In this document: in pieces, positions 2,391-38,606 of the stretch | How positions within the stretch are numbered: the stretch's first letter is position 1 | How the letters are laid out: every line of letters begins with the position of its first letter | Sequence record: NC_102531.1 | From: a phage | DNA length: 64,000 bases | Strand: one strand, 5' to 3' | Notes under the pieces: model-generated | Seen by the model: the letters and a program-made list of their open reading frames with translations, nothing else | Database searches by the model: none | What the model was told of the DNA's origin: nothing | Position numbers and translations under genes: made by a program

Positions 2391-2601
2391 GGCGTTTTCC
2401 TCTCTTCCGGTTGTTGTGTGGGCACTTTTGCCCCTTCAAGATAAATGTTACCCCACCCCATGGCAGATGTCAACGGTTTTTATAGTTCTTATATGACAGG
2501 CACCCCCGGTGATTGTCTCCCCCCGTCGCCAGGTGCCTGCCGTGTAATAAGTATAACAAAAAACAGGACCATTGCAAGCCCTGTTTTCTAGTTAATAAGG
2601 A

Positions 2602-2793
2602 TTATATTTTTTCGCCTATGTAGTCCGGTCGGTTTTTCTCTGTCATGCGCTTTAGCAATTCTTGCATGTTACTTATGGCTTGTAGTGTATCCTCTTCCAG
2701 ACTTGAATCAACATAATCAGGATCGTCTATAACCTTTCTATGATTATGATAACGCAGTACCGCCAATACCTTTCTAACTTGTTCGGTATTCAT
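2602..2793 (-). CDS. Hypothetical protein (63 aa)
   Basis: ORF, weak Shine-Dalgarno. Confidence 0.4.
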   Translation of the reverse strand: MNTEQVRKVLAVLRYHNHRKVIDDPDYVDSSLEEDTLQAISNMQELLKRMTEKNRPDYIGEKI

Positions 2794-2942
2794 TTTTATC
2801 GCTCTTTAAAACAAGGTGCCAACCGTTTCCAATAGATCACTGACTACAAGGACAATACTGATCAGCACATATCTAACCATAAGGGGGAAGAGCGCCAGAG
2901 ATCCCGCCACAATCCCCAAGGTGATAATTATCTTTCTCATGG

Positions 2943-3227
2943 TTAACGGTTCACGTAAGTTTTCCCGTTTACGGTGATGGGCAGATCCTCCAGGTCTGGA
3001 TCTTCCTTAAGGTCGCGAGCAAGCTCACCGCACCGGATACCCTCGAATCCGTAGTACTCTGTCGTGCCGTCCCGGAAAGTTTTAGCGGCAAGGCATAAGC
3101 GATAAGTAACCCCGATTTGATTGACGGCATGAATATCCGTTAGATTAACCTCTTTTGCCAGCTCTTTAGCCATTACAGGCGCATTAAGTCCAACAACCAG
3201 GGCAACCACTGCGATCATCTTTTTCAT
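2943..3227 (-). CDS. Small secreted protein (94 aa) with N-terminal signal-peptide-like segment
   Basis: MKKMIAVVALVVGLNAPVMA then polar domain; AAGAGGA Shine-Dalgarno. Confidence 0.5.
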   Translation of the reverse strand: MKKMIAVVALVVGLNAPVMAKELAKEVNLTDIHAVNQIGVTYRLCLAAKTFRDGTTEYYGFEGIRCGELARDLKEDPDLEDLPITVNGKTYVNR

Positions 3228-3318
3228 TGTGTCTATCCTCTTTCTGCTAAGTTTAAGGCGGCGGTAACCGCCTGTTTATGCTTTGTTGGTTAATTTTCGG
3301 GTATCGGTATAAATTAAA

Positions 3319-3534
3319 CTATGCTGTACGCTCAACTATAACAACGGTTTGGGGGATCTCACCTTCCACCACTAATAAGGCCTTTTTCTGCGTGATGGAT
3401 ATCTTTACCCGTTGCAGCGTGGCGGTGAAGTCTTTCATTTCGTCACGTGGTGTTTTAGTGCAATACCAGATCTCAGGCTTGCCGATCTGTAAGTTGCGTA
3501 AAAATTCTGTTTTGCCTGTTTTGTTAGTGATCAT
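3319..3534 (-). CDS. Hypothetical protein (71 aa)
   Basis: ORF in the operon frame series. Confidence 0.45.
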   Translation of the reverse strand: MITNKTGKTEFLRNLQIGKPEIWYCTKTPRDEMKDFTATLQRVKISITQKKALLVVEGEIPQTVVIVERTA

Positions 3535-3543
3535 TTGCCAACC

Positions 3544-3648
3544 TCACCCGATACCGTTGGAAGACAAGATCATATTAGACATGGTTGCAATCAGGCCAAT
3601 ACCCAGGGCAATAACCAGGATCACCGCATCAATTAATTTCTGTTTCAT
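3544..3648 (-). CDS. Small hydrophobic peptide (34 aa, MKQKLIDAVILVIALGIGLIATMSNMILSSNGIG)
   Basis: Hand-translated; ATG preceded by AGAAGAGGA; below the ORF-track size cutoff. Confidence 0.35.
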   Translation of the reverse strand: MKQKLIDAVILVIALGIGLIATMSNMILSSNGIG

Positions 3649-3738
3649 CTTGTTTTCCTCTTCTTGTTCCAGGTGGCGGACCATTCCACCGCCTTATGTA
3701 TTATGCTTTGTTAGATGGTTGTTTGTTGTCAAGCTATT

Positions 3739-3993
3739 TTAACGATAATCATCGTACGCTTTATTAACCTGGCGAATATAACATTCAAAAGCCAGATCAA
3801 TAGATTTATATTCACGGATATATTCACCATAGGAAACAACATACATTTCTATAGCTTCCTCATATGCGAGGAGAATAGAATCTAAGCCTACGATCTCAGT
3901 CTTTGCAATAATAGCCATGATTTTTATCCTCTTTGTGGTTGGTGGGGCTTGTTCCTTTGATTTATATTCTACAGTCTTATAAGGCCATGTCAA
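3739..3993 (-). CDS. Hypothetical protein (84 aa)
   Basis: ORF. Confidence 0.45.
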   Translation of the reverse strand: MTWPYKTVEYKSKEQAPPTTKRIKIMAIIAKTEIVGLDSILLAYEEAIEMYVVSYGEYIREYKSIDLAFECYIRQVNKAYDDYR

Positions 3994-4251
3994 CTATTTT
4001 TCAAAAAATTTTTCTGCTGTGATATTCTTCCCGGTAGGGTTCGCTACTTTCAAAATTTTATCATGCACTGGACGCCCAAAAGAATAAGCGCCGTACACAG
4101 TAAACCAATAATCGCCGTCAGGCTGTACTATTACCGCCGCATATGGTACGCCTTTTTCGTTATTGCTGACAAAATAGATCACATTGCCATTAATAGCCTC
4201 AGCGCGTTTAATTTGTTCCATCATGATAGTTTGCCTCTTTTTATTTTTCAT
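3994..4251 (-). CDS. Hypothetical protein (85 aa)
   Basis: ORF abutting the upstream gene. Confidence 0.45.
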   Translation of the reverse strand: MKNKKRQTIMMEQIKRAEAINGNVIYFVSNNEKGVPYAAVIVQPDGDYWFTVYGAYSFGRPVHDKILKVANPTGKNITAEKFFEK

Positions 4252-4286
4252 AATTTCAGGCGGGGGCCTTTTCGGCCCCGCCAGGT

Positions 4287-4619
4287 TTATTTATTGATAG
4301 CGTGCAGCGGGAAAGCTACGCCAGGTTGATAGATAACCTTTACAACCTCATCAGGACAAAAGAAATTGCAGAACTCACCGCAATAGGCCTCATCCTCTTT
4401 CAACTCTTCATCAACATACTCAAAAAAGTAGTCGATGCTTGGATAATCTTGCCCTGGGTTATAGTCAACCATTGTCAGGACTAGTTCAAGATCGTTGCGT
4501 AGGATATGCATACCCGCTTTTAAGTATTTTGCTTCCATTTCTACTACATCGCCAGCGGTAACAATAGCCATGGTTTTAACTCCTGTTTCTGTTAATGATT
4601 GGGGGCCGCCCCTTGACAC
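4287..4619 (-). CDS. Hypothetical protein (110 aa)
   Basis: ORF. Confidence 0.5.
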   Translation of the reverse strand: MSRGGPQSLTETGVKTMAIVTAGDVVEMEAKYLKAGMHILRNDLELVLTMVDYNPGQDYPSIDYFFEYVDEELKEDEAYCGEFCNFFCPDEVVKVIYQPGVAFPLHAINK

Positions 4620-4792
4620 GTCCTATTATCCATATTGTAGGGCTTGATGCAAGTACTTATTTAAAAATTTTTTAAGCGCCTTGGGGGCCGCTGTAACGCT
4701 AAAATAATAAAGGCCATGCAACCGCATAGCCTTTATGTGATTATATCGCTGCAGGCCCTGCTAGGGGCCTTATTTTGCATCATTTGCCGGAA

Positions 4793-5098
4793 CTACACAG
4801 AGAAAACATCGTTCACAATAGCGATCACAATGCCGCCCACCTTGTCACGGTCAACAATGCACAAATCACCATAGATCATGTGGTAGTCTGGATGATCTTT
4901 CACGGAATAGTCAATGAGCGTTTTCTTGTCGTCCAGCTTTGTAACTTCCATTCTCATAACGATATGAGAATCATCAAAGGCATTATTCCGAAAAGTCATA
5001 GCCTGACCACCAGGGCACCCAGTGATCTCCACTTCCACACCGTCTACGATCTGACCATCAAAGAAATAAAGATTATTGGCGGGTATAAACATGATCAT
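4793..5098 (-). CDS. Hypothetical protein (101 aa; start moved to the ATG after AAGGAG)
   Basis: The track ORF begins at GTG 5113; ATG at 5098 has AAGGAG 4-5 nt upstream. Confidence 0.5.
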   Translation of the reverse strand: MIMFIPANNLYFFDGQIVDGVEVEITGCPGGQAMTFRNNAFDDSHIVMRMEVTKLDDKKTLIDYSVKDHPDYHMIYGDLCIVDRDKVGGIVIAIVNDVFSV

Positions 5099-5134
5099 TA
5101 CTCCTTTTTGCACTGATTATTTTAACAGGGTTTA

Positions 5135-5164
5135 AATTTACTTTATTGATGGCCCTGGAGTCAA
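5135..5164 (-). promoter_or_regulatory. Sigma70-like promoter, repeat family A copy 1 (-35 TTGACT, 18-nt spacer, -10 TAAATT)
   Basis: Inside a 50-bp element (5137..5186) repeated at 8880..8929 and, degenerate, at 9502..9541. Confidence 0.45.
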
Positions 5165-5183
5165 GGCCATCTAAAAATAAATT

Positions 5184-5384
5184 TTACAGGCCTACAATCT
5201 CTTTGATTCGTTTAATTGCTGCCTCAGCGCCTTGGGGGTAGAAATTATGGTAACCAATCACGCGAGTGATACTAATCGCCGTTTGATGATCTTCATAGTC
5301 GCCCTTGAAGATTTCTTGACCGTCAATCAGCACGGCAATTTTTTCTTCTTTTTTGAAGTTAATAACGCGGATATTGTTGCTCAT
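5184..5384 (-). CDS. Hypothetical protein (66 aa)
   Basis: ORF. Confidence 0.45.
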   Translation of the reverse strand: MSNNIRVINFKKEEKIAVLIDGQEIFKGDYEDHQTAISITRVIGYHNFYPQGAEAAIKRIKEIVGL

Positions 5385-5484
5385 TTTGTTTCTCCTTTCT
5401 GGTTTTTGTGGTGGTAGGGATTAGCTCCCCGTTGATTGTTATTATCCACATTCCGGACCGGATTGCAACACTCCGGAAGAAAAA

Positions 5485-5519
5485 TTTTTTAAAAAGATAG
5501 GCCCCCATGATCGGGGGCC
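5485..5519 (-). terminator. Intrinsic terminator
   Basis: Stem GGCCCCC / GGGGGCC, then TATCTTTTT on the minus strand. Confidence 0.55.
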
Positions 5520-5523
5520 GTTC

Positions 5524-5643
5524 TTAGTTACTTACAGCGATAAAGTACATCCCTACGCCTAGCAATATTTCAAGGGCGATAATCTCAAGCCATACCATAA
5601 CGCGGCGCACCTTATCGGTGCATGGCTTATCCTTGGTTGTCAT
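5524..5643 (-). CDS. Small membrane peptide (39 aa, MTTKDKPCTDKVRRVMVWLEIIALEILLGVGMYFIAVSN)
   Basis: Hand-translated; AGGAGGA Shine-Dalgarno; ATGA start-stop overlap with the upstream ORF. Confidence 0.35.
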   Translation of the reverse strand: MTTKDKPCTDKVRRVMVWLEIIALEILLGVGMYFIAVSN

Positions 5644-5903
5644 CGTCTCCCCCTTTCCTCCTGGTAGTAGTGACGCGATCTACAATGGCCCCCAGGAGTC
5701 CTATCACGACACACACCACAAGAAAAATTATCTCCGCTGTTGTTCGATCCATTGTTATAAAATTCCTCAAGATCAGGCCTGAAAATAAAGCGTTCGTTAT
5801 TGAATCCGTCACGCCAGGCGGCTGGCTTCAAATCTTCACTAAAGGGATTAATTAACGTGGCATTATTTAAACGGTTGGCCCACATATTTTCTATTCCTCT
5901 CAA
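5640..5903 (-). CDS. Hypothetical protein (about 81-87 aa; start uncertain)
   Basis: ATGA coupling to the 39-aa gene; the alternative frame 5627..5812 encodes a TM-containing ORF, so the frame choice is ambiguous. Confidence 0.3.
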   Translation of the reverse strand: MRGIENMWANRLNNATLINPFSEDLKPAAWRDGFNNERFIFRPDLEEFYNNGSNNSGDNFSCGVCRDRTPGGHCRSRHYYQEERGRR

Positions 5904-6234
5904 ATAGACGATCCGCCTCAGTTAAACATATCTCATGGGCTTGATCTCTGGTTTTAGCCTCATCAAAAACCTGTTGTGCCAGGCTGCAGCGTAGGGAGAC
6001 TGGAAGATCACTATAATAGGCGTTGACAAACGTTTGAGCGTCGTACAGGTCTGAAAATACTTTACCCTTTCTATTATTCCCCTTGTCAACAATTGCAAGG
6101 ATAACCAATACAATAGTTGCAACCACCCCCAAGAAAATAGATATAATAAACCATAAAAAGGCGGATCTGCCCATCTTGCCAGCGATCCAGGCGTTAAACA
6201 AGGCAACCAATACAGTCAAAATAATAAATTCCAT
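5863..6234 (-). CDS. Small membrane protein (123 aa, two hydrophobic helices)
   Basis: ATG at 6234 preceded by AAAGAGGT; track start at 6267 judged too far upstream. Confidence 0.5.
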   Translation of the reverse strand: MEFIILTVLVALFNAWIAGKMGRSAFLWFIISIFLGVVATIVLVILAIVDKGNNRKGKVFSDLYDAQTFVNAYYSDLPVSLRCSLAQQVFDEAKTRDQAHEICLTEADRLFERNRKYVGQPFK

Positions 6235-6298
6235 TCTATGTACCTCTTTTGCAGTTCTGTTTAACAATAAGGCGGCAAATATGCCGCCTGTTACCTGA

Positions 6299-6679
6299 TT
6301 AAAAATTATCGCCGTAAATCTTTCCGCTTTCTGCCCACACCACCACGCGGGGCATACTATCCCACACGTCTTGTTTTAGATTGAGCGCGTGCAATTCTTC
6401 GGTGGTGCCCATACCGGGCACGGGCTGATTGTATACTGCAAAACGACCACCCGCATAGTCATAGGCCAGAGTTAAATCACACTGGATCATCTTTTTGATC
6501 ATGGCATTAAGCATGGCGTTAGCCGCATACTGATCACGTTTTAAAGGCAACTCTTTGATTAGTTTGCGATAGTTTTCGATATGGTCGCACACTGTTTCAC
6601 GCGGAAGATCTTTCATATCCTCGCGAAAGGTAACCAGGTTAAACATAACGGTGTCAATAGCTTTAGTAGTGTTTTTCAT
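6299..6679 (-). CDS. Hypothetical protein (126 aa)
   Basis: ORF; hairpin GGGGGCAA / TTGCCCCC in the 5' UTR. Confidence 0.5.
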   Translation of the reverse strand: MKNTTKAIDTVMFNLVTFREDMKDLPRETVCDHIENYRKLIKELPLKRDQYAANAMLNAMIKKMIQCDLTLAYDYAGGRFAVYNQPVPGMGTTEELHALNLKQDVWDSMPRVVVWAESGKIYGDNF

Positions 6680-6769
6680 GATGTTTTCCTCTTTGTTTTG
6701 TGTGGGGGCAAACGTCTTGCCCCCTTGAGTTTTAATATAGCAGGTTTTTAGGTTATTGCAACACTTTAT

Positions 6770-7393
6770 TTATGAAAAAGTCATCTCGCCATATTCATCC
6801 ACATCAAACCGCCAATCATTGGCCTCGATAAGGCCGATCAGGTTTTCGGTAGTGAATTGTTCAAGATAGGCCCCCTCCAGGTCTACGTAAACCTTGCGGG
6901 ATAGTTCCCGTACCGTCTCGGTGATCAGCTCTTCCAGCTCTTCAACCTTACTTTCTTGCTTGGCTGTCAGGTCTAGCCATGTAGTATCGATGTACCCGCT
7001 TACAGTGTTTTCGTGACTATAGCGGCTATATGGATCACGCTCAACACTTGCGGATAGTTCGCCATCGTGCATTGTGCCGAACAAGTGACGAATTGAACGG
7101 AATTTAGTCAGAGACTTGACTTTACGCAAGAATTTTTCTAAATCCACGTTTTCAGCACTGATTGACGCGCCGTCACCCTGGCACCAAAAGCCGGACCAAT
7201 GTACCTTGGTATCTTCAAGGCCGTACTCTGGAAAGATATATTCTTCATAGTATTCAATTACATTTTCTGCAAAAAAGTTATCCCCGCTGTGTTCTTCTCT
7301 TTCGCGGACCATTTCAACGGCTTTTTCTTTTTGTTCGTCGGTCAGCACGTCGAAAGATAAATTGTAACCTGTGGTAATGTTAACGGTGGTCAT
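6770..7393 (-). CDS. Hypothetical acidic protein (207 aa)
   Basis: ORF with AGGAGAAAAT Shine-Dalgarno, downstream of a consensus-like promoter. Confidence 0.55.
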   Translation of the reverse strand: MTTVNITTGYNLSFDVLTDEQKEKAVEMVREREEHSGDNFFAENVIEYYEEYIFPEYGLEDTKVHWSGFWCQGDGASISAENVDLEKFLRKVKSLTKFRSIRHLFGTMHDGELSASVERDPYSRYSHENTVSGYIDTTWLDLTAKQESKVEELEELITETVRELSRKVYVDLEGAYLEQFTTENLIGLIEANDWRFDVDEYGEMTFS

Positions 7394-7421
7394 GATATTT
7401 TCTCCTATTTTCTTTGTTAGT

Positions 7422-7440
7422 GGCGGGAAGTTTTCCCGCC
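7422..7440 (-). promoter_or_regulatory. 5' UTR stem-loop GGCGGGAA gtt TTCCCGCC, conserved family B element
   Basis: 8-bp perfect stem between promoter and ribosome-binding site; related copies at 9293..9309 and 9958..9978. Confidence 0.45.
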
Positions 7441-7450
7441 TGTGTGTTTA

Positions 7451-7479
7451 AGTATACTTATTGATATTTACTTGTCAAC
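7451..7479 (-). promoter_or_regulatory. Sigma70-like promoter, family B copy 1 (-35 TTGACA, 17-nt spacer, -10 TATACT)
   Basis: Near-consensus hexamers with correct spacing upstream of gene 6770..7393. Confidence 0.55.
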
Positions 7480-7728
7480 ACTATTTTTTAAATTATTGTG
7501 GCGTAAAATGTTCAAGATCTCTTCAACGTCATCAACACGGCGGCAATTTTTAAACGCTACCAATTGCCCCAGGATTTTAATCACTGGACGGCCTTGCCAG
7601 TGCCCTTGGAGAAAGCGCGCCTTAACTTTATCGGTGGAACTATCGCGCCACCAAACTGCTTTATTATTGCAGTAGTAAAAATTATTCAGGACAACATCTA
7701 CTTTATCAAAATTTTTTAATTTGCGCAT
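7468..7728 (-). CDS. Hypothetical protein (86 aa)
   Basis: ORF. Confidence 0.45.
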   Translation of the reverse strand: MRKLKNFDKVDVVLNNFYYCNNKAVWWRDSSTDKVKARFLQGHWQGRPVIKILGQLVAFKNCRRVDDVEEILNILRHNNLKNSVDK

Positions 7729-7973
7729 GGCGTTTACTCCTTCCTTCTTGCTTTGATGTGGTTAGTATATCCGGACTATTCCAAGGTGTCAAGCTTTGAA
7801 TAAAATCACTGTCAATAATATTTTTAACGCCATAAAACGGCCCTAGACGCTGTTTTCAGGTCAAGAAAGGGGATTGCATAGGTAGGGGCTTTTGTGGCGT
7901 TTGTGGGGCCAACCGGGGGCGCTATTCGTAGGATAGAAATAAAAAGCCCCGCACAATGGCGGGGCGTTGGTTG

Positions 7974-8171
7974 TTATTTGCCTTTGTGGCGGTATCGTTC
8001 CGCCTGTCGTTCACGTTCCAAAAGTAGGCCCGGCAATTTACGATCATAATGATTCCGCCAGATCTTCCCAAATCTTTTTGGCTTATTCAGTTTATTGTTG
8101 CGCTGGCGGCGTTCCGGCAACTCTTCAGAATCATGAGGGCGCTTTACAATTTTTTCGAAATTAATTTTCAT
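7974..8171 (-). CDS. Small basic protein (65 aa)
   Basis: ATG at 8171 preceded by AGGGGGA; Arg/Lys-rich. Confidence 0.45.
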   Translation of the reverse strand: MKINFEKIVKRPHDSEELPERRQRNNKLNKPKRFGKIWRNHYDRKLPGLLLERERQAERYRHKGK

Positions 8172-8532
8172 AACTTCCCCCTTTACTGATCTCAATATTT
8201 GCCTGAATCGCCCGGATACGCCGTTTTATAACCTCCTGATCCTTGCAATCATATCCCCAAAAGTCTACGATTTTTGCGCCTCCAGCCTTTAGGCGGTATA
8301 GTGTTTCTTGCATCTTGTAAGCCGGGATCGGTCGCGGTGTTACCTGGTCGCCCTTCTCATTCTTGTACTTGATAATGTAGTCTTCATTGTCGTTGAATAC
8401 CCAAAATGGGTATTCTGTGAGCGCGTTGCTCTCTTTTTCGTTTTTGGATTGGATCTTGTTTACAATTAAAGCCGTAGCAATAGCACCAATAATAAAACTT
8501 GCCCCGCTGATCATGTTACTTTCTCCTTTCAT
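8161..8532 (-). CDS. Hypothetical protein with N-terminal hydrophobic segment (123 aa)
   Basis: ORF; ISGASFIIGAIATALIV looks like a TM helix. Confidence 0.45.
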   Translation of the reverse strand: MKGESNMISGASFIIGAIATALIVNKIQSKNEKESNALTEYPFWVFNDNEDYIIKYKNEKGDQVTPRPIPAYKMQETLYRLKAGGAKIVDFWGYDCKDQEVIKRRIRAIQANIEISKGGSYEN

Positions 8533-8590
8533 TGTGTTGATAAACTATCTTTATAGATGGCCCTGCTACCAGGACCACCGAAAAAACAGT

Positions 8591-8836
8591 TTATTTGACG
8601 ATACCGACAAAACAGATCCCGCCTTCCCCTATATAGGCAATATCGGTAATTTTATAATTTGTCAAGATCCGCGTGTTCAGCTCATTAATAAAATCTGTCA
8701 TCGCGTTGGTGTAGTTGTCTTCCATGTCTAGGGAATAATCCCAGGTGTAAACCTTTTTACGTCCGAAGCCTTTTACCATGATACGGGCGCTTTTGGTGTT
8801 AGTAGGAGCATAATACTTGGTGATTAGTGCTGCCAT
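8591..8836 (-). CDS. Hypothetical protein (81 aa)
   Basis: ORF with AAGGAG Shine-Dalgarno, downstream of the family A promoter. Confidence 0.5.
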   Translation of the reverse strand: MAALITKYYAPTNTKSARIMVKGFGRKKVYTWDYSLDMEDNYTNAMTDFINELNTRILTNYKITDIAYIGEGGICFVGIVK

Positions 8837-8877
8837 GGTTTTAACTCCTTTGCATTAGTTCAGTGTTAACAGTATAA

Positions 8878-8907
8878 AGTTTACTTTATTGATGGCCCTG
8901 GAGTCAA
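8878..8907 (-). promoter_or_regulatory. Sigma70-like promoter, family A copy 2 (-35 TTGACT, 18-nt spacer, -10 TAAACT)
   Basis: 50-bp element 8880..8929 identical to 5137..5186. Confidence 0.45.
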
Positions 8908-8926
8908 GGCCATCTAAAAATAAATT

Positions 8927-9268
8927 TTACTCGTTTTCTTCCAGCTTTGAAAGCTCTTCTTTCACTTCTTCAAGCTCTGTCTGCAATTCTTGGTACTCTT
9001 CATCGTCCTCAATATCCAGGCTGTCGATGTAGTCGCTAAATCCGCAGCGGTAAGCGATAGGATCTAACTCCTTGAGGATACGCGACGGAAGAAAAGAAAT
9101 GTTTCCGATCATAATTTCGCCATAAACCTCGTCTAGCCATTCATCATAGTTTTCGTCGTACTTGTCCTCGTCGATTTCAAAGTTATCGATCTTATTCTCA
9201 AGGTCTGCGATCTGTTTTTTCAGAGCGGCGATCTGCAGGGCTTTTTCTTCGGCGGTCATAGTAGTCAT
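8927..9268 (-). CDS. Acidic coiled-coil protein (113 aa)
   Basis: ORF; heptad-like acidic sequence. Confidence 0.5.
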   Translation of the reverse strand: MTTMTAEEKALQIAALKKQIADLENKIDNFEIDEDKYDENYDEWLDEVYGEIMIGNISFLPSRILKELDPIAYRCGFSDYIDSLDIEDDEEYQELQTELEEVKEELSKLEENE

Positions 9269-9319
9269 GGTGTTTTTCTCCTTTCGTGTGTCTGGGGAAG
9301 TTTTCCCGTCTATGTGCTT

Positions 9320-9347
9320 AGTATACTGATCTAAGTTAGCTTGTCAA
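9320..9347 (-). promoter_or_regulatory. Sigma70-like promoter, family B copy 2 (-35 TTGACA, 16-nt spacer, -10 TATACT)
   Basis: Same architecture as 7451..7479, followed by a GGGAA / TTCCC hairpin. Confidence 0.5.
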
Positions 9348-9467
9348 TTAAAAGTTTAAGAAAAATTTTGCTACACCGTTGGCGCTACCCATCAACATTT
9401 GCGCCAGGATGTAACCAATGATGCAAACGATAATAGTTACCTTTGTGTGCTGGCGTGTAGTGCTCAT
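9348..9467 (-). CDS. Small membrane peptide (39 aa, MSTTRQHTKVTIIVCIIGYILAQMLMGSANGVAKFFLNF)
   Basis: Hand-translated codon by codon; AGGAGG Shine-Dalgarno 7 nt upstream. Confidence 0.35.
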   Translation of the reverse strand: MSTTRQHTKVTIIVCIIGYILAQMLMGSANGVAKFFLNF

Positions 9468-9542
9468 CTTTAAGCCTCCTTTTCCGCTTAATTGTGGTTA
9501 GTTTACTTTATTGATTGGAGTCAAGGCCATCTAAAAATAAAC

Positions 9543-9938
9543 TCAATAAGTTTTTAGTACTTTCCCGTCCAATCTGTCAAGCTGGATCTCGATAGCTGCA
9601 GAAAACCTATTGTAAACCACATCGCCCAAGGAGTCCAGCCAATCTATGACGTTATACACCTGCTCTTTATTCTTGCAAGTCCGGATCCGTTTCATTACGT
9701 AAGACGGATCAATATTAGTGCTCTCGTTGTTGTGGTCATGCGCCTGGCCTGCCGCATTAGTTATAGATTTTACAACCACCTGAAAAGGCTTTAAGGTGCC
9801 TTTTGCGTTCATCTCACGCGCTTTTGCGGCGCGGTTGTTATATGTTACACAACGGCGGCAAATGTTGACTAAATGCATGTCAATAATTTTTTCATCGTTT
9901 GCCAGTTCGTTCATGATGCGGCGTACGTTCTTATTCAT
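9543..9938 (-). CDS. Hypothetical protein (131 aa)
   Basis: ORF with AGGAAA Shine-Dalgarno. Confidence 0.5.
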   Translation of the reverse strand: MNKNVRRIMNELANDEKIIDMHLVNICRRCVTYNNRAAKAREMNAKGTLKPFQVVVKSITNAAGQAHDHNNESTNIDPSYVMKRIRTCKNKEQVYNVIDWLDSLGDVVYNRFSAAIEIQLDRLDGKVLKTY

Positions 9939-9957
9939 GATCTTTTTCCTTTGTGTT

Positions 9958-9978
9958 GGCGGGAAACATTCCCGTCTT
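9958..9978 (-). promoter_or_regulatory. 5' UTR stem-loop GGCGGGAA aca TTCCCGTC, family B copy 3
   Basis: Same hairpin as 7422..7440 with one wobble pair. Confidence 0.4.
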
Positions 9979-10025
9979 TTGTGTATAGTTTACTTGAATT
10001 TTGCAGCGTGTCAATAATTTTTTTT

Positions 10026-10424
10026 TTATTCGTGGGCACATGTTACAATGTGCTTTTTATAGCCCAGGTGGTTAGCAAGTGCCGCCAAAAACTCTTCTTC
10101 ATAGATCCAGCCGTCGGCAGTGATTCCCATGGCACTTAATGCGCTTTCAAGTGCAGCGTTGGCTTTATCATAACCGTGACCGCTCGCCTTGCCGCCAGTA
10201 TAACCGTACTTATTGTTCTTGTTGTCGTGAATCCAAAATACACAGTAGTGAGTGTTACCGCTGGCGGCGGCATAGTACCGGATCTCCGCTACTTCGTGCA
10301 AATTATTATCATCGTCCAGGCCAACCAGATTATAGGCCTTGTAGAATCCGCGATCACGGCGGCAGCTTTTAACATCAGAAAAAGAGAAGTCAGCATTGTC
10401 AAAATTAAAGGTTGTGGTTTTCAT
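10026..10424 (-). CDS. Hypothetical protein (132 aa)
   Basis: ORF. Confidence 0.5.
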   Translation of the reverse strand: MKTTTFNFDNADFSFSDVKSCRRDRGFYKAYNLVGLDDDNNLHEVAEIRYYAAASGNTHYCVFWIHDNKNNKYGYTGGKASGHGYDKANAALESALSAMGITADGWIYEEEFLAALANHLGYKKHIVTCAHE

Positions 10425-10488
10425 GATTTTATCCTCTTAGTGTCTTTTGTGCTTTCAGTATATTTTGTTTCAGACTACATGTCAATAT

Positions 10489-10686
10489 TTATTTTTTATT
10501 AAACCAGTGGTTGATCTGACCTTTTGTCAGGGCGCAACGATTAAGCTGTTGCAGGGTATAGCTATGACCGCGACGAAATTTATAAAGGCCTTGCCCGTTG
10601 TTGATGGTTACATCCACCCGGCAAATCACTTGATTGGTGACCACCTGGCGAGTGTTGCGACGTACTTTGATCCCGTATGCGTTCAT
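10489..10686 (-). CDS. Hypothetical protein (65 aa; start at the internal ATG)
   Basis: ATG at 10686 preceded by AAAGAGGA. Confidence 0.4.
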   Translation of the reverse strand: MNAYGIKVRRNTRQVVTNQVICRVDVTINNGQGLYKFRRGHSYTLQQLNRCALTKGQINHWFNKK

Positions 10687-10941: not shown

Positions 10942-11067
10942 TTTTGTACCTCCTCTTCAATTGTTTACCCTACTACCAGGTTTGCAAGCTTTCACCCCCC
11001 TGCCAGGCTGGCCCCGCCAGGTTGCAACGGTTAGCGCATCAGGTTAGAAAAAATTTTTTGAAAAGTG

Positions 11068-11096
11068 TTGACAGCGGCCCCGCCGGGTGGCACAAT
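11068..11096 (+). promoter_or_regulatory. Plus-strand promoter-like unit 1 (-35 TTGACA, AT-rich upstream, weak -10 CACAAT with TG at -15)
   Basis: Perfect -35 hexamer; weak -10; no ORF downstream. Confidence 0.35.
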
Positions 11097-11211
11097 ATAC
11101 CTATCGAAAGGACGGCAGGCACCGGTGACGGGGGAGACAACCACCGGGGATGGGCGCTGCATAAAATGAGAACGGTTATCATTATCATTTAAAAATTTAT
11201 GCAAAAAGTCC

Positions 11212-11242
11212 TTGCTTTCTTTGTCCTGTGTGATACTATAAT
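11212..11242 (+). promoter_or_regulatory. Plus-strand promoter-like unit 2 (-35 TTGCTT, -10 TATAAT)
   Basis: Perfect -10 hexamer at 11237..11242; downstream region shares GGGAGACAA and GAGAAnGnTTATCATT motifs with unit 1. Confidence 0.4.
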
Positions 11243-11358
11243 AACAAGCCGGGGCAACAGGGGCCGGGAGACAATCACCGGGCCTGCCCGTTATTCTGCA
11301 AACGAGAATGATTATCATTCAAAATTCTAAATGAGAACTCCTCGCATTTAATAAATTT

Positions 11359-11374
11359 AATTAGCATGCTAATT
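11359..11374. repeat. 16-bp perfect palindrome AATTAGCATGCTAATT (candidate operator)
   Basis: Self-complementary on inspection. Confidence 0.5.
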
Positions 11375-11523
11375 ACCCTCCGTAACAATTTCCTATAAAA
11401 CAGTATCCCATAAAATATTCCCATATAGAAATTTTAAAAATCCATTTCTGAAAACGAAAAATCGATTTCGTCCCCAAAAATTTCAGGTCGAGATCCGGAA
11501 CGATTTCCAGAAAATCCGGTTCA

Positions 11524-11547
11524 GAAAACGAAAAACAGATCGAGTAC
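11524..11547. repeat. Direct repeat GAAAACGAAAAACAGATCGAGTAC, copy b
   Basis: 22 bp identical to 11591..11612; partial copy at 11450..11466; contains GATC. Confidence 0.6.
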
Positions 11548-11589
11548 TGAGAAATTTATCGAGAAAAATTTTCAGAAAATTCAATCTTT

Positions 11590-11612
11590 GAAACGAAAAA
11601 CAGATCGAGTAC
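11590..11612. repeat. Direct repeat GAAACGAAAAACAGATCGAGTAC, copy c
   Basis: Matches copy b. Confidence 0.6.
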
Positions 11613-11924
11613 CTGGAAAGCTGCACCGCAACTTCAAGATAGTGGTTGGATTATTACCATAAAAGGTCAAGGGTAAGTGGAGGAAGTTCTGGTAGAAGGG
11701 TGTGAGCATGTGCGGGAAATCTGTAATGGTGGTCTGGAATATGGTGCAAACGATAGGATGAGTGGTTCATCTCGCCATGCCTGCTCTGAAAAATCCATTT
11801 TAGTTTTCGATCCATTTTCTGATTTTCTAAGGATTTTAAAATATCCAGCCTGGTGAAATATCAAAAGGAGGAAATCCATTTTAGAAATCCCCCTTACACT
11901 TGATATGCCAGGAATTTTCAAGTA

Positions 11925-15202: not shown

Positions 15203-15233
15203 TACAAAAATGCCCCACCCTTTCGGGCAGGGC
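15203..15233 (-). terminator. Intrinsic terminator with GAAA tetraloop (GCCCTGCCC gaaa GGGTGGGGC, then ATTTTTG)
   Basis: 9-bp stem with T-run; the 22-nt hairpin sequence recurs exactly at 25334..25355. Confidence 0.65.
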
Positions 15234-24556: not shown

Positions 24557-25340
24557 TAATTCTGCTCCTTACTGCAGGCTCGTTTGCTAAGAATACAGCT
24601 TTTGCCCAGCCACGGGGTGTGAGGCTTCGAATCATCTTTGTTCTTGCACTCTTTCCCCCCAGCTTGGCGTGTTGCATGGAATACCCGCTAACCGCGTCAA
24701 CTATTTGCGGGACAGGTTTTGTGGCCGGGATTATAAATCCATTACCTATCCAGCCGCAAGTTATTTTTGGATAGGCATCACGTGGAGCTATAAATTCAGG
24801 AAACCAGGGGTTTACATCATCCTCCGGTAAATACCCGCCATAATCAGAAGGGTGAAAACGGTAATCAGGTTTGCGCCACAGCGTGGACATAACACCCACA
24901 GGATTCTCTACATGCCACGGGCAATCGTAAATCTCTCCCAACTCTTCTGCAACCCGAGCATCCTTTACAGCGTTAATCTGGATCAGCGGGTCCTTAGCCA
25001 GCTTCTTCTTAAAGTGTGCAGCACCTGACACCGCTAAGTGGGTGCACGGAGGAAATGCAAGAACAAAGTCCGGAGCTGGGTACATGCAGAAAGTTTCCTG
25101 AGGGAACCATGGATCAATCCAATAATCTACATAGTGAATATTTGGATGATCGGTGATCACCTCTGCATAACTGCCGTGGTCAGCACCTTCTGCGTTAAAG
25201 CACAGGCACAGATATCCAGCTTTTGCCCAGTCAATGACTGCACCGCCAGATCCGTCAAACAGACTCCACACAACACCTTTGTGGTAGTGTTCTTTATAGA
25301 TAAATTTCAATTTGCTGTCTCCTAATGCAAAAAGCCCCAC
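24546..25340 (-). CDS. Compact C5-cytosine methyltransferase-like protein (264 aa) with variant catalytic motif
   Basis: Motif I SLFDGSGG, motif IV FPPCTHLAVSG (PCT instead of PCQ), motif VI HVENPVG; too short for a normal target-recognition domain. Confidence 0.5.
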   Translation of the reverse strand: MGLFALGDSKLKFIYKEHYHKGVVWSLFDGSGGAVIDWAKAGYLCLCFNAEGADHGSYAEVITDHPNIHYVDYWIDPWFPQETFCMYPAPDFVLAFPPCTHLAVSGAAHFKKKLAKDPLIQINAVKDARVAEELGEIYDCPWHVENPVGVMSTLWRKPDYRFHPSDYGGYLPEDDVNPWFPEFIAPRDAYPKITCGWIGNGFIIPATKPVPQIVDAVSGYSMQHAKLGGKSARTKMIRSLTPRGWAKAVFLANEPAVRSRINGK

Positions 25341-25355
25341 CCTTTCGGGCAGGGC
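25326..25355 (-). terminator. Intrinsic terminator, second copy of the GAAA-tetraloop hairpin
   Basis: Identical 22-nt hairpin to 15212..15233, followed by TTTTTGCA. Confidence 0.6.
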
Positions 25356-25361
25356 CTAGTG

Positions 25362-25844
25362 TTAAACCCGGATACCTATTGTATACTCGGTGGATACCAA
25401 TGTCAAATCTAAATTTAAAATTTCTTGCATCTCATAATATGCGTCCAGGGTGAGATACATTTCCCCATCCTTTTCTACATACTTGTCAAGGTGTTTGAGG
25501 CACTTTGGATAACTATCAAGTGCAGCTTTCAGACACTCAAATTCTGTGCTGTTGATGAATCCTTCCATCTTGGCTACCCGTTCTGGAGTAACGATAGCAC
25601 TGTAGTGAGATTTAGCTTCCTGAATGCAATGGGTCCAAGCATCAACTTTCTCTTCGAAAAGTCCGAAGAACTTCTTTTTGGTGAGCTTCAGATTCTTTAA
25701 GTGCTTAAGCACTCGGTTGCCGATCACAGCCACATCACGAAACTTAAGGATCACTTTGTCGATATCCTCGCGGCCTATTTTCACAAAGCAAGCTTCACAC
25801 ATTTCAGGAGCTGCGTAACCTACTTTCCACATAAAATCTGACAT
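25362..25844 (-). CDS. Hypothetical protein (160 aa)
   Basis: ORF. Confidence 0.5.
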   Translation of the reverse strand: MSDFMWKVGYAAPEMCEACFVKIGREDIDKVILKFRDVAVIGNRVLKHLKNLKLTKKKFFGLFEEKVDAWTHCIQEAKSHYSAIVTPERVAKMEGFINSTEFECLKAALDSYPKCLKHLDKYVEKDGEMYLTLDAYYEMQEILNLDLTLVSTEYTIGIRV

Positions 25845-37555: not shown

Positions 37556-37565
37556 CACGTTTTTG

Positions 37566-38606
37566 ATGTTGACATCTGTTGAGACAATTGATACGATTTC
37601 TTCACTTACAGAGCACGAGAGACGACTCATGAATCTTGAAAAATATTATACACCAGAAGAGTTAGAGCGCTTGCTCAAAAAATATAGACGCAAACAGAAT
37701 AACGCACGGAAACGAGATATAGAGTTCGACCTGTCATGGGAAGAATACCTCCTATTTGGTAAAAAACTTTTAGGAGATGGAGTATGCGACTATACCCTTA
37801 TACCTTTTGACATGCACACAGATGAAAACGGGCTGGGAAATCCTTTCTACCCATCTCTGGAGCGGATAGATGATGAAGGTCCTTATGCGGTTGATAACTG
37901 TTGTGTGGTGGGATTGAGATGCAACTCTCTAAAGGACTGTCTGGTAGATAAAAAGACTGCAGTCTTGATTAAAGACGAAACTGATCGAAAAATTGTCCAG
38001 CAGATGATGCTCCACCTGAGCGAAGAGCGTATGGAGAAATTGAAAGGTGATTATACTTTTGAAGATTTCATCTTGCAATATGGAACGGAAGAGGATAAAC
38101 TAGCACTCTTTGACGAAGAAGAGGAGGAAGATATGCTACCGATGTCTAAAGTTACTTATCGTGCACCCAAGAAGCACATTTCCGACATTGTAAACGAGCC
38201 TATCACAGAAGAGATTGAAGAAATGACGCAACAGGTGCATGAAGAGGAAAAAGAGACTCAGGAGGTCGAAGAGGAGCTTACAGAAGAGGTTCCTGCACTA
38301 CCTGATGATGTTGAGATTGCCAAAGCTTACACTTTCTATTGTCAAACGTTCTACGATGTAGGTATGAAAGTTGATCTGTCGTTCAGCCAATTTAAGAGTT
38401 CGTATATTCGCAAATGCTGTGCTTTAACTGGTGAACGTCTTGAAGCTGGACTTAAACCTCTGTTGGTGACCGACTGGAATAAAGGTTTCACTAAAGGAAA
38501 CTTTATGGTAGTATCTCCAATTATGGAGAAAGCTATGACAGATCTTATGAAGACCACCCGCATGACAATGACCGAGTTGGCAGGTATTTTCAAACACGTT
38601 AAATAA
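37566..38606 (+). CDS. Hypothetical protein (346 aa) with internal MSKVTYRA copy at residue 193 and an acidic central linker
   Basis: First gene of the plus-strand island; contains the right copy of the 29-bp inverted repeat in frame. Confidence 0.5.
   Translation: MLTSVETIDTISSLTEHERRLMNLEKYYTPEELERLLKKYRRKQNNARKRDIEFDLSWEEYLLFGKKLLGDGVCDYTLIPFDMHTDENGLGNPFYPSLERIDDEGPYAVDNCCVVGLRCNSLKDCLVDKKTAVLIKDETDRKIVQQMMLHLSEERMEKLKGDYTFEDFILQYGTEEDKLALFDEEEEEDMLPMSKVTYRAPKKHISDIVNEPITEEIEEMTQQVHEEEKETQEVEEELTEEVPALPDDVEIAKAYTFYCQTFYDVGMKVDLSFSQFKSSYIRKCCALTGERLEAGLKPLLVTDWNKGFTKGNFMVVSPIMEKAMTDLMKTTRMTMTELAGIFKHVK
38137..38165. repeat. 29-bp perfect inverted repeat, right copy
   Basis: taccgatgtctaaagttacttatcgtgca, reverse-complementary to 36275..36303. 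Confidence 0.85.

Follow-up and report, generated by a model that had tools for sequence, protein, structure and literature searches.

The 64,000-nucleotide (nt) stretch of phage DNA analyzed here (sequence record NC_102531.1, referred to below as the window) carried, between positions 5135 and 10014, two families of short intergenic elements in which promoter-like sequences were combined with conserved hairpins. We concluded, with a probability of about 0.6, that these elements are composite early-expression cassettes of the promoter-early stem-loop (PeSL) type, that is, σ70-type promoters joined to a stem-loop unit that would act in the sense RNA. The feature was real and statistically supported but largely expected; the promoters had already been predicted for phage rV5, and the promoter/stem-loop concept was known from another phage group. 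What was new was the extension of this concept to the Vequintavirinae, the fixed position of the hairpin in the Family B type, the sense-RNA signature of the Family A type, and the comparative evidence for recombination between repeats. The original prediction, which was made from the window sequence and had described both families, missed the PeSL precedent and the recombination role of the repeats.

PeSLs were described in the T4-type phages RB49, phi1, PST/T4, and nt-1/KVP40 (Arbiol et al. 2010, PMC2839356; Comeau et al. 2014, PMC4122927). They are repeated intergenic cassettes in ORFan-rich regions in which a σ70 promoter is combined with a polyG...polyC stem-loop and an A/T-rich tract. 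Five positions were described for the stem-loop, among them one that overlaps the -35 and one that follows the -10, and the copies recombine, creating insertions and deletions (indels) (PMC2839356).

The window phage was an rV5-like coliphage (Vequintavirus) that was ~95% identical to rV5. The 5.1-kb interval was 94 to 95% identical to Escherichia phage rV5 and ~120 other Vequintavirus genomes, and it corresponded to rV5 open reading frames (ORFs) 177 to 195, a series of small genes, functionally uncharacterized, that were all located on the minus strand of the window. Because the early genes were on the minus strand, both families were read as the reverse complement of the sequence in the original prediction. 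Unless stated otherwise, comparisons were made across 15 genomes, namely, the window and 14 relatives. An IMG/VR search with the protein encoded downstream of the first Family B promoter (B1) yielded only two close relatives and was of little use for covariation; GenBank phage records were used instead. The interval 5135 to 10014 was syntenic in 13 of the 14 relatives, the exception being ECML-10, in which the gene after B1 was largely missing. The parts of the early block that adjoined the families contained many gene-sized indels among the relatives.

The three Family B elements (Table 1) were the promoters predicted as P185, P192, and P194 in rV5 (Kropinski et al. 2013, Table S4; PMC3606486), and their assignment as σ70-type promoters appeared sound from the sequence matches. 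The motif originally given for this family, TTGACA-16/17-TATACT, was exact with a 16-nt spacer at B1 and B2, but B3 had TAAACT. The accompanying hairpin was supposed to follow the -10 immediately; the actual gap was 10 to 12 nt. At B1, the hairpin was GGCGGGAA-AAC-TTCCCGCC (-14.6 kcal/mol, z = -5.6), and downstream of it were an A/C-rich leader, a Shine-Dalgarno (SD) sequence, and an ATG at 7393. The predicted stem, GGCGGGAA-N3-TTCCCGCC, was exact at B1 only. It was absent from B2 even when three mismatches were allowed, and B2 had GGGAA/TTCCC instead. In the window, B3 carried one mismatch (GACGGGAA) at a position that was G in 14 of 14 relatives (GGCGGG), and its hairpin had a folding energy of -8.1 kcal/mol (z = -1.6). 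The corresponding values were -14.6 kcal/mol in 12 of the 14 relatives and -13.3 and -14.4 kcal/mol in the other two.

The same layout was found at three additional promoters in the window. The hairpins were GGGGGCAA-GACGU-UUGCCCCC at promoter 6761 (P6761; -15.9 kcal/mol, z -4.0), GGGGA-GCUAA-UCCCU at promoter 5468 (P5468), and GGGCA-AAAG-UGCCC at promoter 2473 (P168 of rV5); P5468 was located directly downstream of a canonical terminator (t181, 5500-5519). At six window promoters (7478, 9347, 10014, 6761, 5468, and 2473), a G-rich/C-rich hairpin started 9 to 12 nt after the -10, and among 27 candidate early-block promoters, no hairpin was found at other offsets between 0 and 30. With hairpin starts at a background density of 0.0071 per nt, the enrichment had a binomial P of ~1e-4 to 1e-5. 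A 9/12 promoter match at 8951 also had a hairpin at offset 9, which we attributed to a chance overlap with the hairpin of Family A copy 2. The six cassettes, each ~85 nt from -35 to ATG, aligned colinearly: an A/T-rich tract, a GTGTTGACA-like -35, the -10, ~10 nt, the hairpin, an A/C-rich leader, the SD, and the ATG.

This architecture was also observed in two other Vequintavirinae lineages, with stems that were unrelated in sequence to those of the window. Phage TH18 had hairpins 11 to 12 nt after the -10 at three to four promoters (including 11951, 13571, and 14332) and inverted repeats enclosing the -10 at three promoters. In phage PVP-SE1, one hairpin was 10 nt after the -10, the -10 was enclosed by an inverted repeat in two cases, and a further inverted repeat was located in the spacer. 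At other window promoters, inverted repeats were found around the -10 (18176 and 13537) or around the -35 (2577). In the last case (2557-2590, minus strand), a 14-bp hairpin, AAAACAGGGC...GGTCCTGTTTT, surrounded the -35 of TTGCAA-16-TATACT (with a TG extension) and was followed by a T-run. This site was a recurrent insertion/deletion junction among the relatives, several of which had 305 to 346 nt inserted.

Family A had been described as a 50-bp element with three copies. Both copies and the degenerate third copy were indeed present, but a repeat finder indicated that the element was 54 nt long, was on the minus strand, and had a fourth relative that had been overlooked. Copies 1 and 2 (A1 and A2) were 98% identical, and copy 3 (A3) and the fourth relative, which had only the hairpin (Ah), were found at 67% identity. 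On the coding strand, a full copy consisted of the stop codon of the upstream gene, AAAATTTATTTTT, GATGGCCTTGACTCCAGGGCCATC, AATAAAG, and TAAAYT, with the next ribosome-binding site (RBS) ~40 nt further on. In the case of A1, the stop codon was at 5184-5186, the downstream gene started ~40 nt beyond the element, and the 10-bp hairpin was GAUGGCCUUG-ACUC-CAGGGCCAUC, followed by AATAAAG and then TAAATT. The A3 copy of the window had a 5-bp deletion (GGGCC) that was found in the window only; it removed the 3' arm and cut the spacer to 13 nt, and A3 was intact in 14 of 14 relatives examined. The Ah hairpin, GGUGGUCCUG-GUAG-CAGGGCCAUC, shared its 3' arm with Family A, contained two G·U pairs, and had a different loop. 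Its 5' arm differed from that of Family A at three positions, and G·U pairs maintained the pairing at all three. We found no convincing -35 at Ah.

The inverted repeat ATGGCC..GGCCAT that had been reported together with TTGACT was present and exceeded chance, since the pattern GATGGCC-N10-GGCCATC with up to two mismatches had three matches versus 0.12 expected. The RNA stem, however, was 10 bp with a tetraloop instead of 7 bp. The central 24 nt of the element formed this stem, which included one G·U pair, with a folding energy of -17.8 kcal/mol (z = -5.15), and 0 of 200 shuffled sequences folded equally well. TTGACT spanned the top of the stem and the loop, and the -10-like TAAAYT followed after 18 nt, a 9/12 match to the consensus. 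The TTGAC portion was invariant in the 42 intact Family A copies listed from the 15 genomes, and position 6 toggled between T and A toward the consensus. Moreover, AAAATTTATTTTT was located at -57 to -45 relative to TTGACT/18 nt/TAAAYT, which is the register of the Escherichia coli UP-element consensus. It is plausible from these sequence features that Family A is also a promoter. A second conserved promoter upstream of Family A (TAAAAT as the -10, with the hairpin 9 nt away) was considered and rejected as chance because it was found at copy 2 only and there was no -35 at copy 1.

Table 1. Promoter/hairpin elements and canonical terminators of the early block (window positions)
Feature	Position	Strand	Details
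Family A copy 1 (A1)	5134-5187	minus	hairpin 5148-5171; TTGACT 5164 to 5159; TAAATT 5140 to 5135
Family A copy 2 (A2)	8877-8930	minus	hairpin 8891-8914; TTGACT-18-TAAACT 8907 to 8878
Family A copy 3 (A3), broken	9494-9547	minus	-8.2 kcal/mol, z -1.65
Ah, hairpin-only Family A relative	8542-8595	minus	hairpin 8556-8579; -17.8 kcal/mol, z -4.27
B1 (rV5 P185)	7422-7478	minus	TTGACA-16-TATACT 7478 to 7451, 11/12; hairpin 7422-7440 after 10 nt
B2 (rV5 P192)	9295-9347	minus	TTGACA-16-TATACT 9347 to 9320, 11/12; hairpin 9295-9307 after 12 nt
B3 (rV5 P194)	9958-10014	minus	TTGACA-16-TAAACT 10014 to 9987, 10/12; hairpin 9958-9976
Promoter 6761 (P6761), different stem	6704-6761	minus	TTGCAA-16-TATATT 6761 to 6734; hairpin 6704-6724 after 9 nt
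Promoter 5468 (P5468)	5416-5468	minus	TTGCAA-16-GATAAT 5468 to 5441; hairpin 5416-5430 after 10 nt
Promoter 2473 (rV5 P168)	2420-2473	minus	TTGACA-17-TAACAT 2473 to 2445; hairpin ~2420-2434 after 10-11 nt
Canonical terminators with U-tract	5519-5500, 7965-7946, 6289-6270, 15233-15212	minus	terminator scan

The genome comparison indicated that structure was conserved. The -35 hexamers and the stems were nearly invariant across the 15 genomes, and the spacers and loops were variable; at B1, the stems were invariant in 13 of 15 genomes. The P6761 hairpin had 11 alleles in the 15 genomes, each of which folded at the same place with energies of -12 to -18 kcal/mol, and in the HMD6 allele, an inserted C in one arm was compensated by a matching G in the other. 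Two independent inversions of a whole palindrome (FV3/A13b at P6761 and JeffSchatz at B1) kept the stem and flipped the loop. Thus, the identity and orientation of the loop seemed to be immaterial. Standard pairs accounted for 110 of 110 stem cells in Family A and Ah, and all five one-sided stem changes were G·U-compatible on the sense strand; in a DNA cruciform or on the opposite strand, the same changes would give mismatches. Within Family A, 6 of 12 loop columns were variable, compared with 2 of 60 stem columns (P = 1.4e-4). The G-rich 5' arm was abandoned as an indicator of strand because a perfect palindrome is identical on both strands.

These results bear on whether the hairpins have a function at all. 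The repeats could be relics of duplication or recombination, with the stems as by-products of GC-rich spacers, and the degraded state of B2, window B3, and window A3, as well as the lack of double compensatory substitutions in Family A, would be in line with such an origin. We regarded this as very improbable in view of the strong z-scores (-4 to -5.6 for A, Ah, B1, and P6761), the hairpin enrichment at one fixed offset, the eleven folding alleles at P6761, stems that were far less variable than loops, and the presence of this architecture, built from unrelated sequences, in two further lineages of Vequintavirinae.

The wobble pattern and the stem diversity also bear on the suggestion that the inverted repeats are DNA operators at which a phage or host regulator shuts early promoters off together. 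The palindromes do overlap or abut promoter hexamers, Family A consists of three repeats with identical arms, and early promoters must be switched off later in infection. However, the stems differed by promoter (GGCGGGAA, GGGGGCAA, GGGGA, GGGCA, and GATGGCC), and a single promoter carried many stem and loop alleles across relatives, with loops that flipped without consequence. In addition, the Ah arms were asymmetric in DNA and fully paired in RNA through G·U, and the perfect DNA half-sites of Family A (GATGGCC/GGCCATC) were 17 bp apart, center to center, which is off-phase. No DNA-binding protein was recognized among the adjoining small ORFs. Hence, the repressor site that had been put forward for these hairpins was judged to be highly unlikely, given stems that differ, loops that vary and flip, and a Family A wobble that works in RNA only.

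Loop variability was similarly difficult to reconcile with cis-acting RNA signals like lambda nut/boxB or HK022 put, through which a phage factor makes RNA polymerase terminator-resistant. For nut and put elements to work, particular features of the loop or the stem are needed, but the loops here were not conserved and were even inverted, and the stems varied by site and genus. The hairpins just downstream of early promoters, the several canonical terminators within the early block, and the promoter at 25406 that is directly trailed by a strong terminator would all suit antitermination. In contrast, no boxA-like motif was found, the A-type hairpins were upstream of the start, and an Rfam scan of 4500-10600 (E <= 1) matched no known RNA family, its two hits being sub-threshold and attributable to chance. 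We therefore gave antitermination very little weight.

A more serious alternative was that the hairpins are ordinary intrinsic terminators of the upstream transcript and that the adjoining promoters simply belong to the next transcription units. Intrinsic terminators are likewise intergenic GC-rich hairpins, and GenBank annotations point in this direction: the B3-equivalent hairpin is a "putative transcriptional terminator" in the HdK5 record, the A1 and Ah equivalents are terminators in the Murica record, and the B1 match in the Alma record falls on an annotated "terminator." In a single assay, PeSL stem-loops were reported to lower the expression of a lacZ gene behind them to the same extent as rrnB T1 (PMC2839356). 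Furthermore, three hairpins (6704, 7422, and 9958) passed a hairpin-plus-T-rich scan on the plus strand. On the sense strand, however, no U-tract followed any of the hairpins; their tails (ACUAACAAAG, ACACAAAACA, AAUAAAGUAA, and UAUAAAGAUA) were A/C-rich, and a minus-strand terminator scan had no A or B hairpin among its terminators. Genuine terminators in the early block do carry U-tracts, P5468 had its own hairpin despite a canonical terminator 30 nt upstream, and a hairpin spacing of 9 to 12 nt to the -10 would be unexpected for a terminator of upstream RNA. The T-rich tails on the plus strand were by-products of the A-rich initial transcribed region and were poor in TH18, and the antisense-terminator reading was down-weighted in view of the diverse stems, the flipped loops, and the pattern of G·U wobble. 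Because the sense strand lacked U-tracts, we did not read the A and B hairpins as intrinsic terminators, an explanation that we considered unlikely, and, on the same observation, the earlier suggestion of attenuation was not supported in its classical sense. An RNase III processing site, such as those between T7 early genes, has ~two helical turns of duplex RNA; this candidate was rejected because the stems were just 5 to 10 bp.

Recombination between copies is another feature of PeSLs. Family A was present at ~three copies per genome in 120 records, all from Vequintavirus. In JEP1, HdK5, V18, JeffSchatz, and rV5, two or three paralogous Family A copies in the same genome shared a loop variant (ACAC or ACUU), a pattern that requires gene conversion between copies. 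Differences in Family A copy number among records led to the identification of ECP32, which had a single hybrid copy with the upstream flank of A3 and the downstream flank of A2. ECP32 was without the ~0.6 kb between A3 and A2 (window equivalent, 8928-9499), which contains a 39-amino-acid (aa) ORF, promoter B2, and a 113-aa ORF, and two BLAST high-scoring segment pairs overlapped by exactly the 50-nt repeat. The sequence of the junction indicated that ECP32 lost a cassette through recombination between two Family A copies. Because they are near-identical, the copies also act as recombination sites, homogenizing each other and being able to delete the genes in between.

Two other phages had deletions in the early block. 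The rV5 derivative rV5_ev146 (LR699804) was missing ~5.5 kb (window 2514-8026) and ~0.5 kb (9456-9947), with junctions at short microhomologies, one of which was in RBS regions. It follows that much of the early block, two Family A copies included, is dispensable for growth. In ECML-10 (OL631479), most of the gene downstream of B1 was gone relative to window 6958-7407. The left junction was in the leader just past the B1 hairpin, and the promoter and hairpin were fused to a C-terminal gene fragment.

We propose that each cassette, placed between a stop codon and the next RBS, would supply a host σ70-type promoter, an A/T-rich upstream tract, and a stable stem-loop. Promoter activity, the positions of transcription starts, and the effects of the hairpins on RNA are what we infer here from the sequence. 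The B-type hairpin was predicted to start at about +3 to +6 of its own transcript; if initiation occurs 7 to 8 nt after the -10, it would start at about +4 to +6, with a predicted unpaired 5' leader of 3 to 5 nt. A U-poor, A/C-rich leader and the SD would follow. Such a 5'-terminal structure may slow 5'-end-dependent decay by RppH and RNase E and insulate the RBS. The tight spacing to the -10 pointed to a role in the RNA that the promoter itself makes, as did P5468, which keeps its hairpin directly behind a canonical terminator. The nuclease protection by 5'-end hairpins that the original prediction had offered was thus reasonable for the B type, in which the hairpin would begin ~3 to 5 nt into the transcript given a start at the usual distance, but not for Family A, in which the hairpin is upstream of the start. 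Because the A-type hairpin encloses the -35, it would not be in the promoter's own RNA and would form only in read-through RNA from the upstream gene, where it would most likely serve as an intercistronic barrier. It might block 3' exonucleases, provide a 5' structure after an RNase E cut in the U-rich tract, or perhaps act as a weak attenuator. The existence of the hairpin-only Ah suggested that the A-type function is independent of the promoter.

Several points weighed against this proposal. Two unpaired nucleotides are the minimum for RppH and RNase E, which prefer 3 or more (PMC8833179); the predicted leader of 3 to 5 nt satisfies these enzymes, so protection would be partial at best. The B2 hairpin was weak (5 bp, GGGAA-AAC-TTCCC, -5.1 kcal/mol, z -0.8) and was not significant alone. 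The window itself had damaging mutations in A3 and B3, which indicated that the constraint on the hairpins is not absolute, and the B3 mutation created a mismatch in the sense RNA and a G·T wobble on the other strand. Family A matched the promoter consensus at only 9/12 with an 18-nt spacer, and matches in this score class were common by chance, with 63 found versus 43.5 expected. No double compensatory change was observed in Family A across the compared genomes, and the shuffle control for Family A covariation was uninformative, as 361 of 500 shuffles reached the observed value. The covariation evidence was therefore modest, and the case for conserved structure drew mainly on the wobble pattern and the multi-allele P6761 site. 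ECP32 was the one natural recombinant among 17 Vequintavirus genomes inspected; a search of the 14 relatives for indel junctions at Family A or B gave no informative case, and the other indels of the block used RBS-region microhomology instead of the repeats. As for the precedent, the terminator activity claimed for PeSLs comes from a test of one T4-type element (PMC2839356). Finally, a literature search on Vequintavirinae transcriptomics found no study measuring starts, RNA ends, or half-lives in rV5-like phages.

The likeness to PeSLs extended over the whole architecture. The elements were repeated intergenic motifs in a variable, ORFan-rich early region (Family A in 3 to 4 copies and Family B in 3 related copies), filled the space from the stop codon of one gene to the SD/ATG of the next, and matched the σ70 consensus at the -35/-10 with an A/T-rich or UP-like tract upstream. 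The stem-loops overlapped the -35 in Family A and were downstream of the -10 in Family B, and other promoters of the window, as well as TH18 and PVP-SE1, had stem-loops enclosing the -10 or in the spacer. As in PeSLs, recombination between copies removed intervening genes (here, in the one deletion case of ECP32). There were also differences. The lineage was Vequintavirinae rather than T4-type, and a sequence search found the elements in Vequintavirus records only, with no similarity to phages outside Vequintavirus; membership in the PeSL class is thus one of architecture and design, not descent. Promoter, terminator, and mini-circle activities are experimental for PeSLs, whereas the elements described here are known from sequence. 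The tight 9- to 12-nt spacing of the B type and the sense-strand hairpins without U-tracts were further differences, and they favored RNA-stability roles over termination. In a limited library, a literature search turned up no paper on PeSL-like elements in rV5-like phages, which is not proof that none exists. The paper on rV5 (PMC3606486) lists the same promoters at orthologous positions (P185, P192, P194, and P168) but gives hexamers only and mentions neither the downstream hairpins nor Family A.

Other known RNA elements resemble parts of the cassettes. The ompA and papA leaders have 5'-terminal stabilizing stem-loops (Emory, Bouvet, and Belasco 1992, as cited in PMC3997798), and the B-type layout is similar: a simple hairpin, predicted to be near the 5' end, whose stem sequence is unimportant, followed by an unstructured leader and the SD. 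In our comparison, many alleles, the inversions, and the unrelated stems of TH18 and PVP-SE1 all kept the fold, as expected for an element of the ompA type in which structure rather than sequence matters. In the ompA type, no more than ~2 to 4 unpaired nt separate the hairpin from the 5' end of the transcript. In contrast to ompA and papA, the start sites here were predicted, the 3 to 5 unpaired nt were at or beyond the limit for protection, and the A-type hairpins were not at the primary 5' end. Family A and Ah, with an A/U-rich single-stranded tract next to an intercistronic hairpin, resembled repetitive extragenic palindrome (REP)-type 3' barriers and RNase E processing sites in polycistronic mRNAs of T4, to which they had no sequence relation.

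The leaders of the early transcripts had a biased composition. In the predicted 5' untranslated leaders of 17 promoters, T made up 11.8% versus 25.9% for the whole strand (P ~1e-18), and A made up 45.5% versus 30.4%. This depletion of U, like the presence of the Srd-like gene described next, was consistent with the hairpins acting in the promoter's own RNA. It fits avoidance of RNase E sites and also fits unstructured, A-rich translation leaders. A further observation concerned a 347-aa protein encoded at 37563-38606 (plus strand), at a divergent promoter pair equivalent to P010/P011 of rV5. It matched PHROG families whose annotations were HNH endonuclease (9e-113), decoy of host σ70 (3e-15), and Srd anti-sigma factor (2e-10); it had no Pfam hit.

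Srd of T4 activates RNase E on host mRNA (PMC4980113), and a link between the Srd-like protein and shielding of early mRNAs from RNase E is speculative. In such a scheme, the Srd-like protein would stimulate RNase E on host mRNAs, as T4 Srd does, and the early mRNAs of the phage would escape through structured 5' ends and leaders without RNase E sites. A-type hairpins would likewise protect the pieces of RNA that processing in the U-rich tract sets free. Together, the U-depleted leader and the B-type hairpin would then be a shield against a host decay machinery that the phage itself turns up, an idea that we considered doubtful.

Several neighboring features were also noted. The gene downstream of B1 (6770-7393, minus strand) encoded a 207-aa protein of unknown function (phrog_5162) with homologues that were 57 to 59% identical in ~350-kb jumbo coliphages (PBECO4/phAPEC6 group) and remoter homologues in jumbo phages of Erwinia, Klebsiella, and Salmonella. 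A stretch of ~0.95 kb without ORFs (10950-11900) corresponded to the "non-coding" box on the rV5 map. It contained three ~62-nt direct repeats (11419-11619) and two GC-rich units spaced by ~135 nt, both of which had a Fur-box-like palindrome at the end (~11164-11196 and ~11300-11332). This stretch, which had no Rfam match, could be an origin with iterons or a site of small-RNA genes. At 25332-25406 (minus strand), the promoter TTGACA-17-TACAAT (P231 of rV5) had a strong canonical terminator (t232 of rV5) just 21 nt past its -10, and the t232-type terminator sequence was also present at 15212-15233. The P231/t232 pair would produce an RNA of ~45 nt or form a leader attenuator of the next gene.

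The findings have practical consequences for annotation, since several GenBank records call these U-tract-less hairpins terminators, and for engineering, since the elements are compact, standardized, context-insulated expression cassettes of ~85 nt from -35 to ATG. Their interest is modest unless the idea of RNase E shielding is true, in which case phage mRNAs would have a cis-encoded "self-marking" that is carried along with each gene cassette; the 5' hairpins, the U-poor leaders, and the Srd-like protein would be connected in a directly testable way. If the PeSL-type reading is confirmed, promoter/stem-loop cassettes would not be peculiar to T4-type phages and would represent a design, convergent or shared, of early regions that evolve fast in large virulent coliphages. 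In these regions, orphan genes would travel with their own promoter, RNA-structure element, and RBS, and the repeats would drive gene gain and loss.

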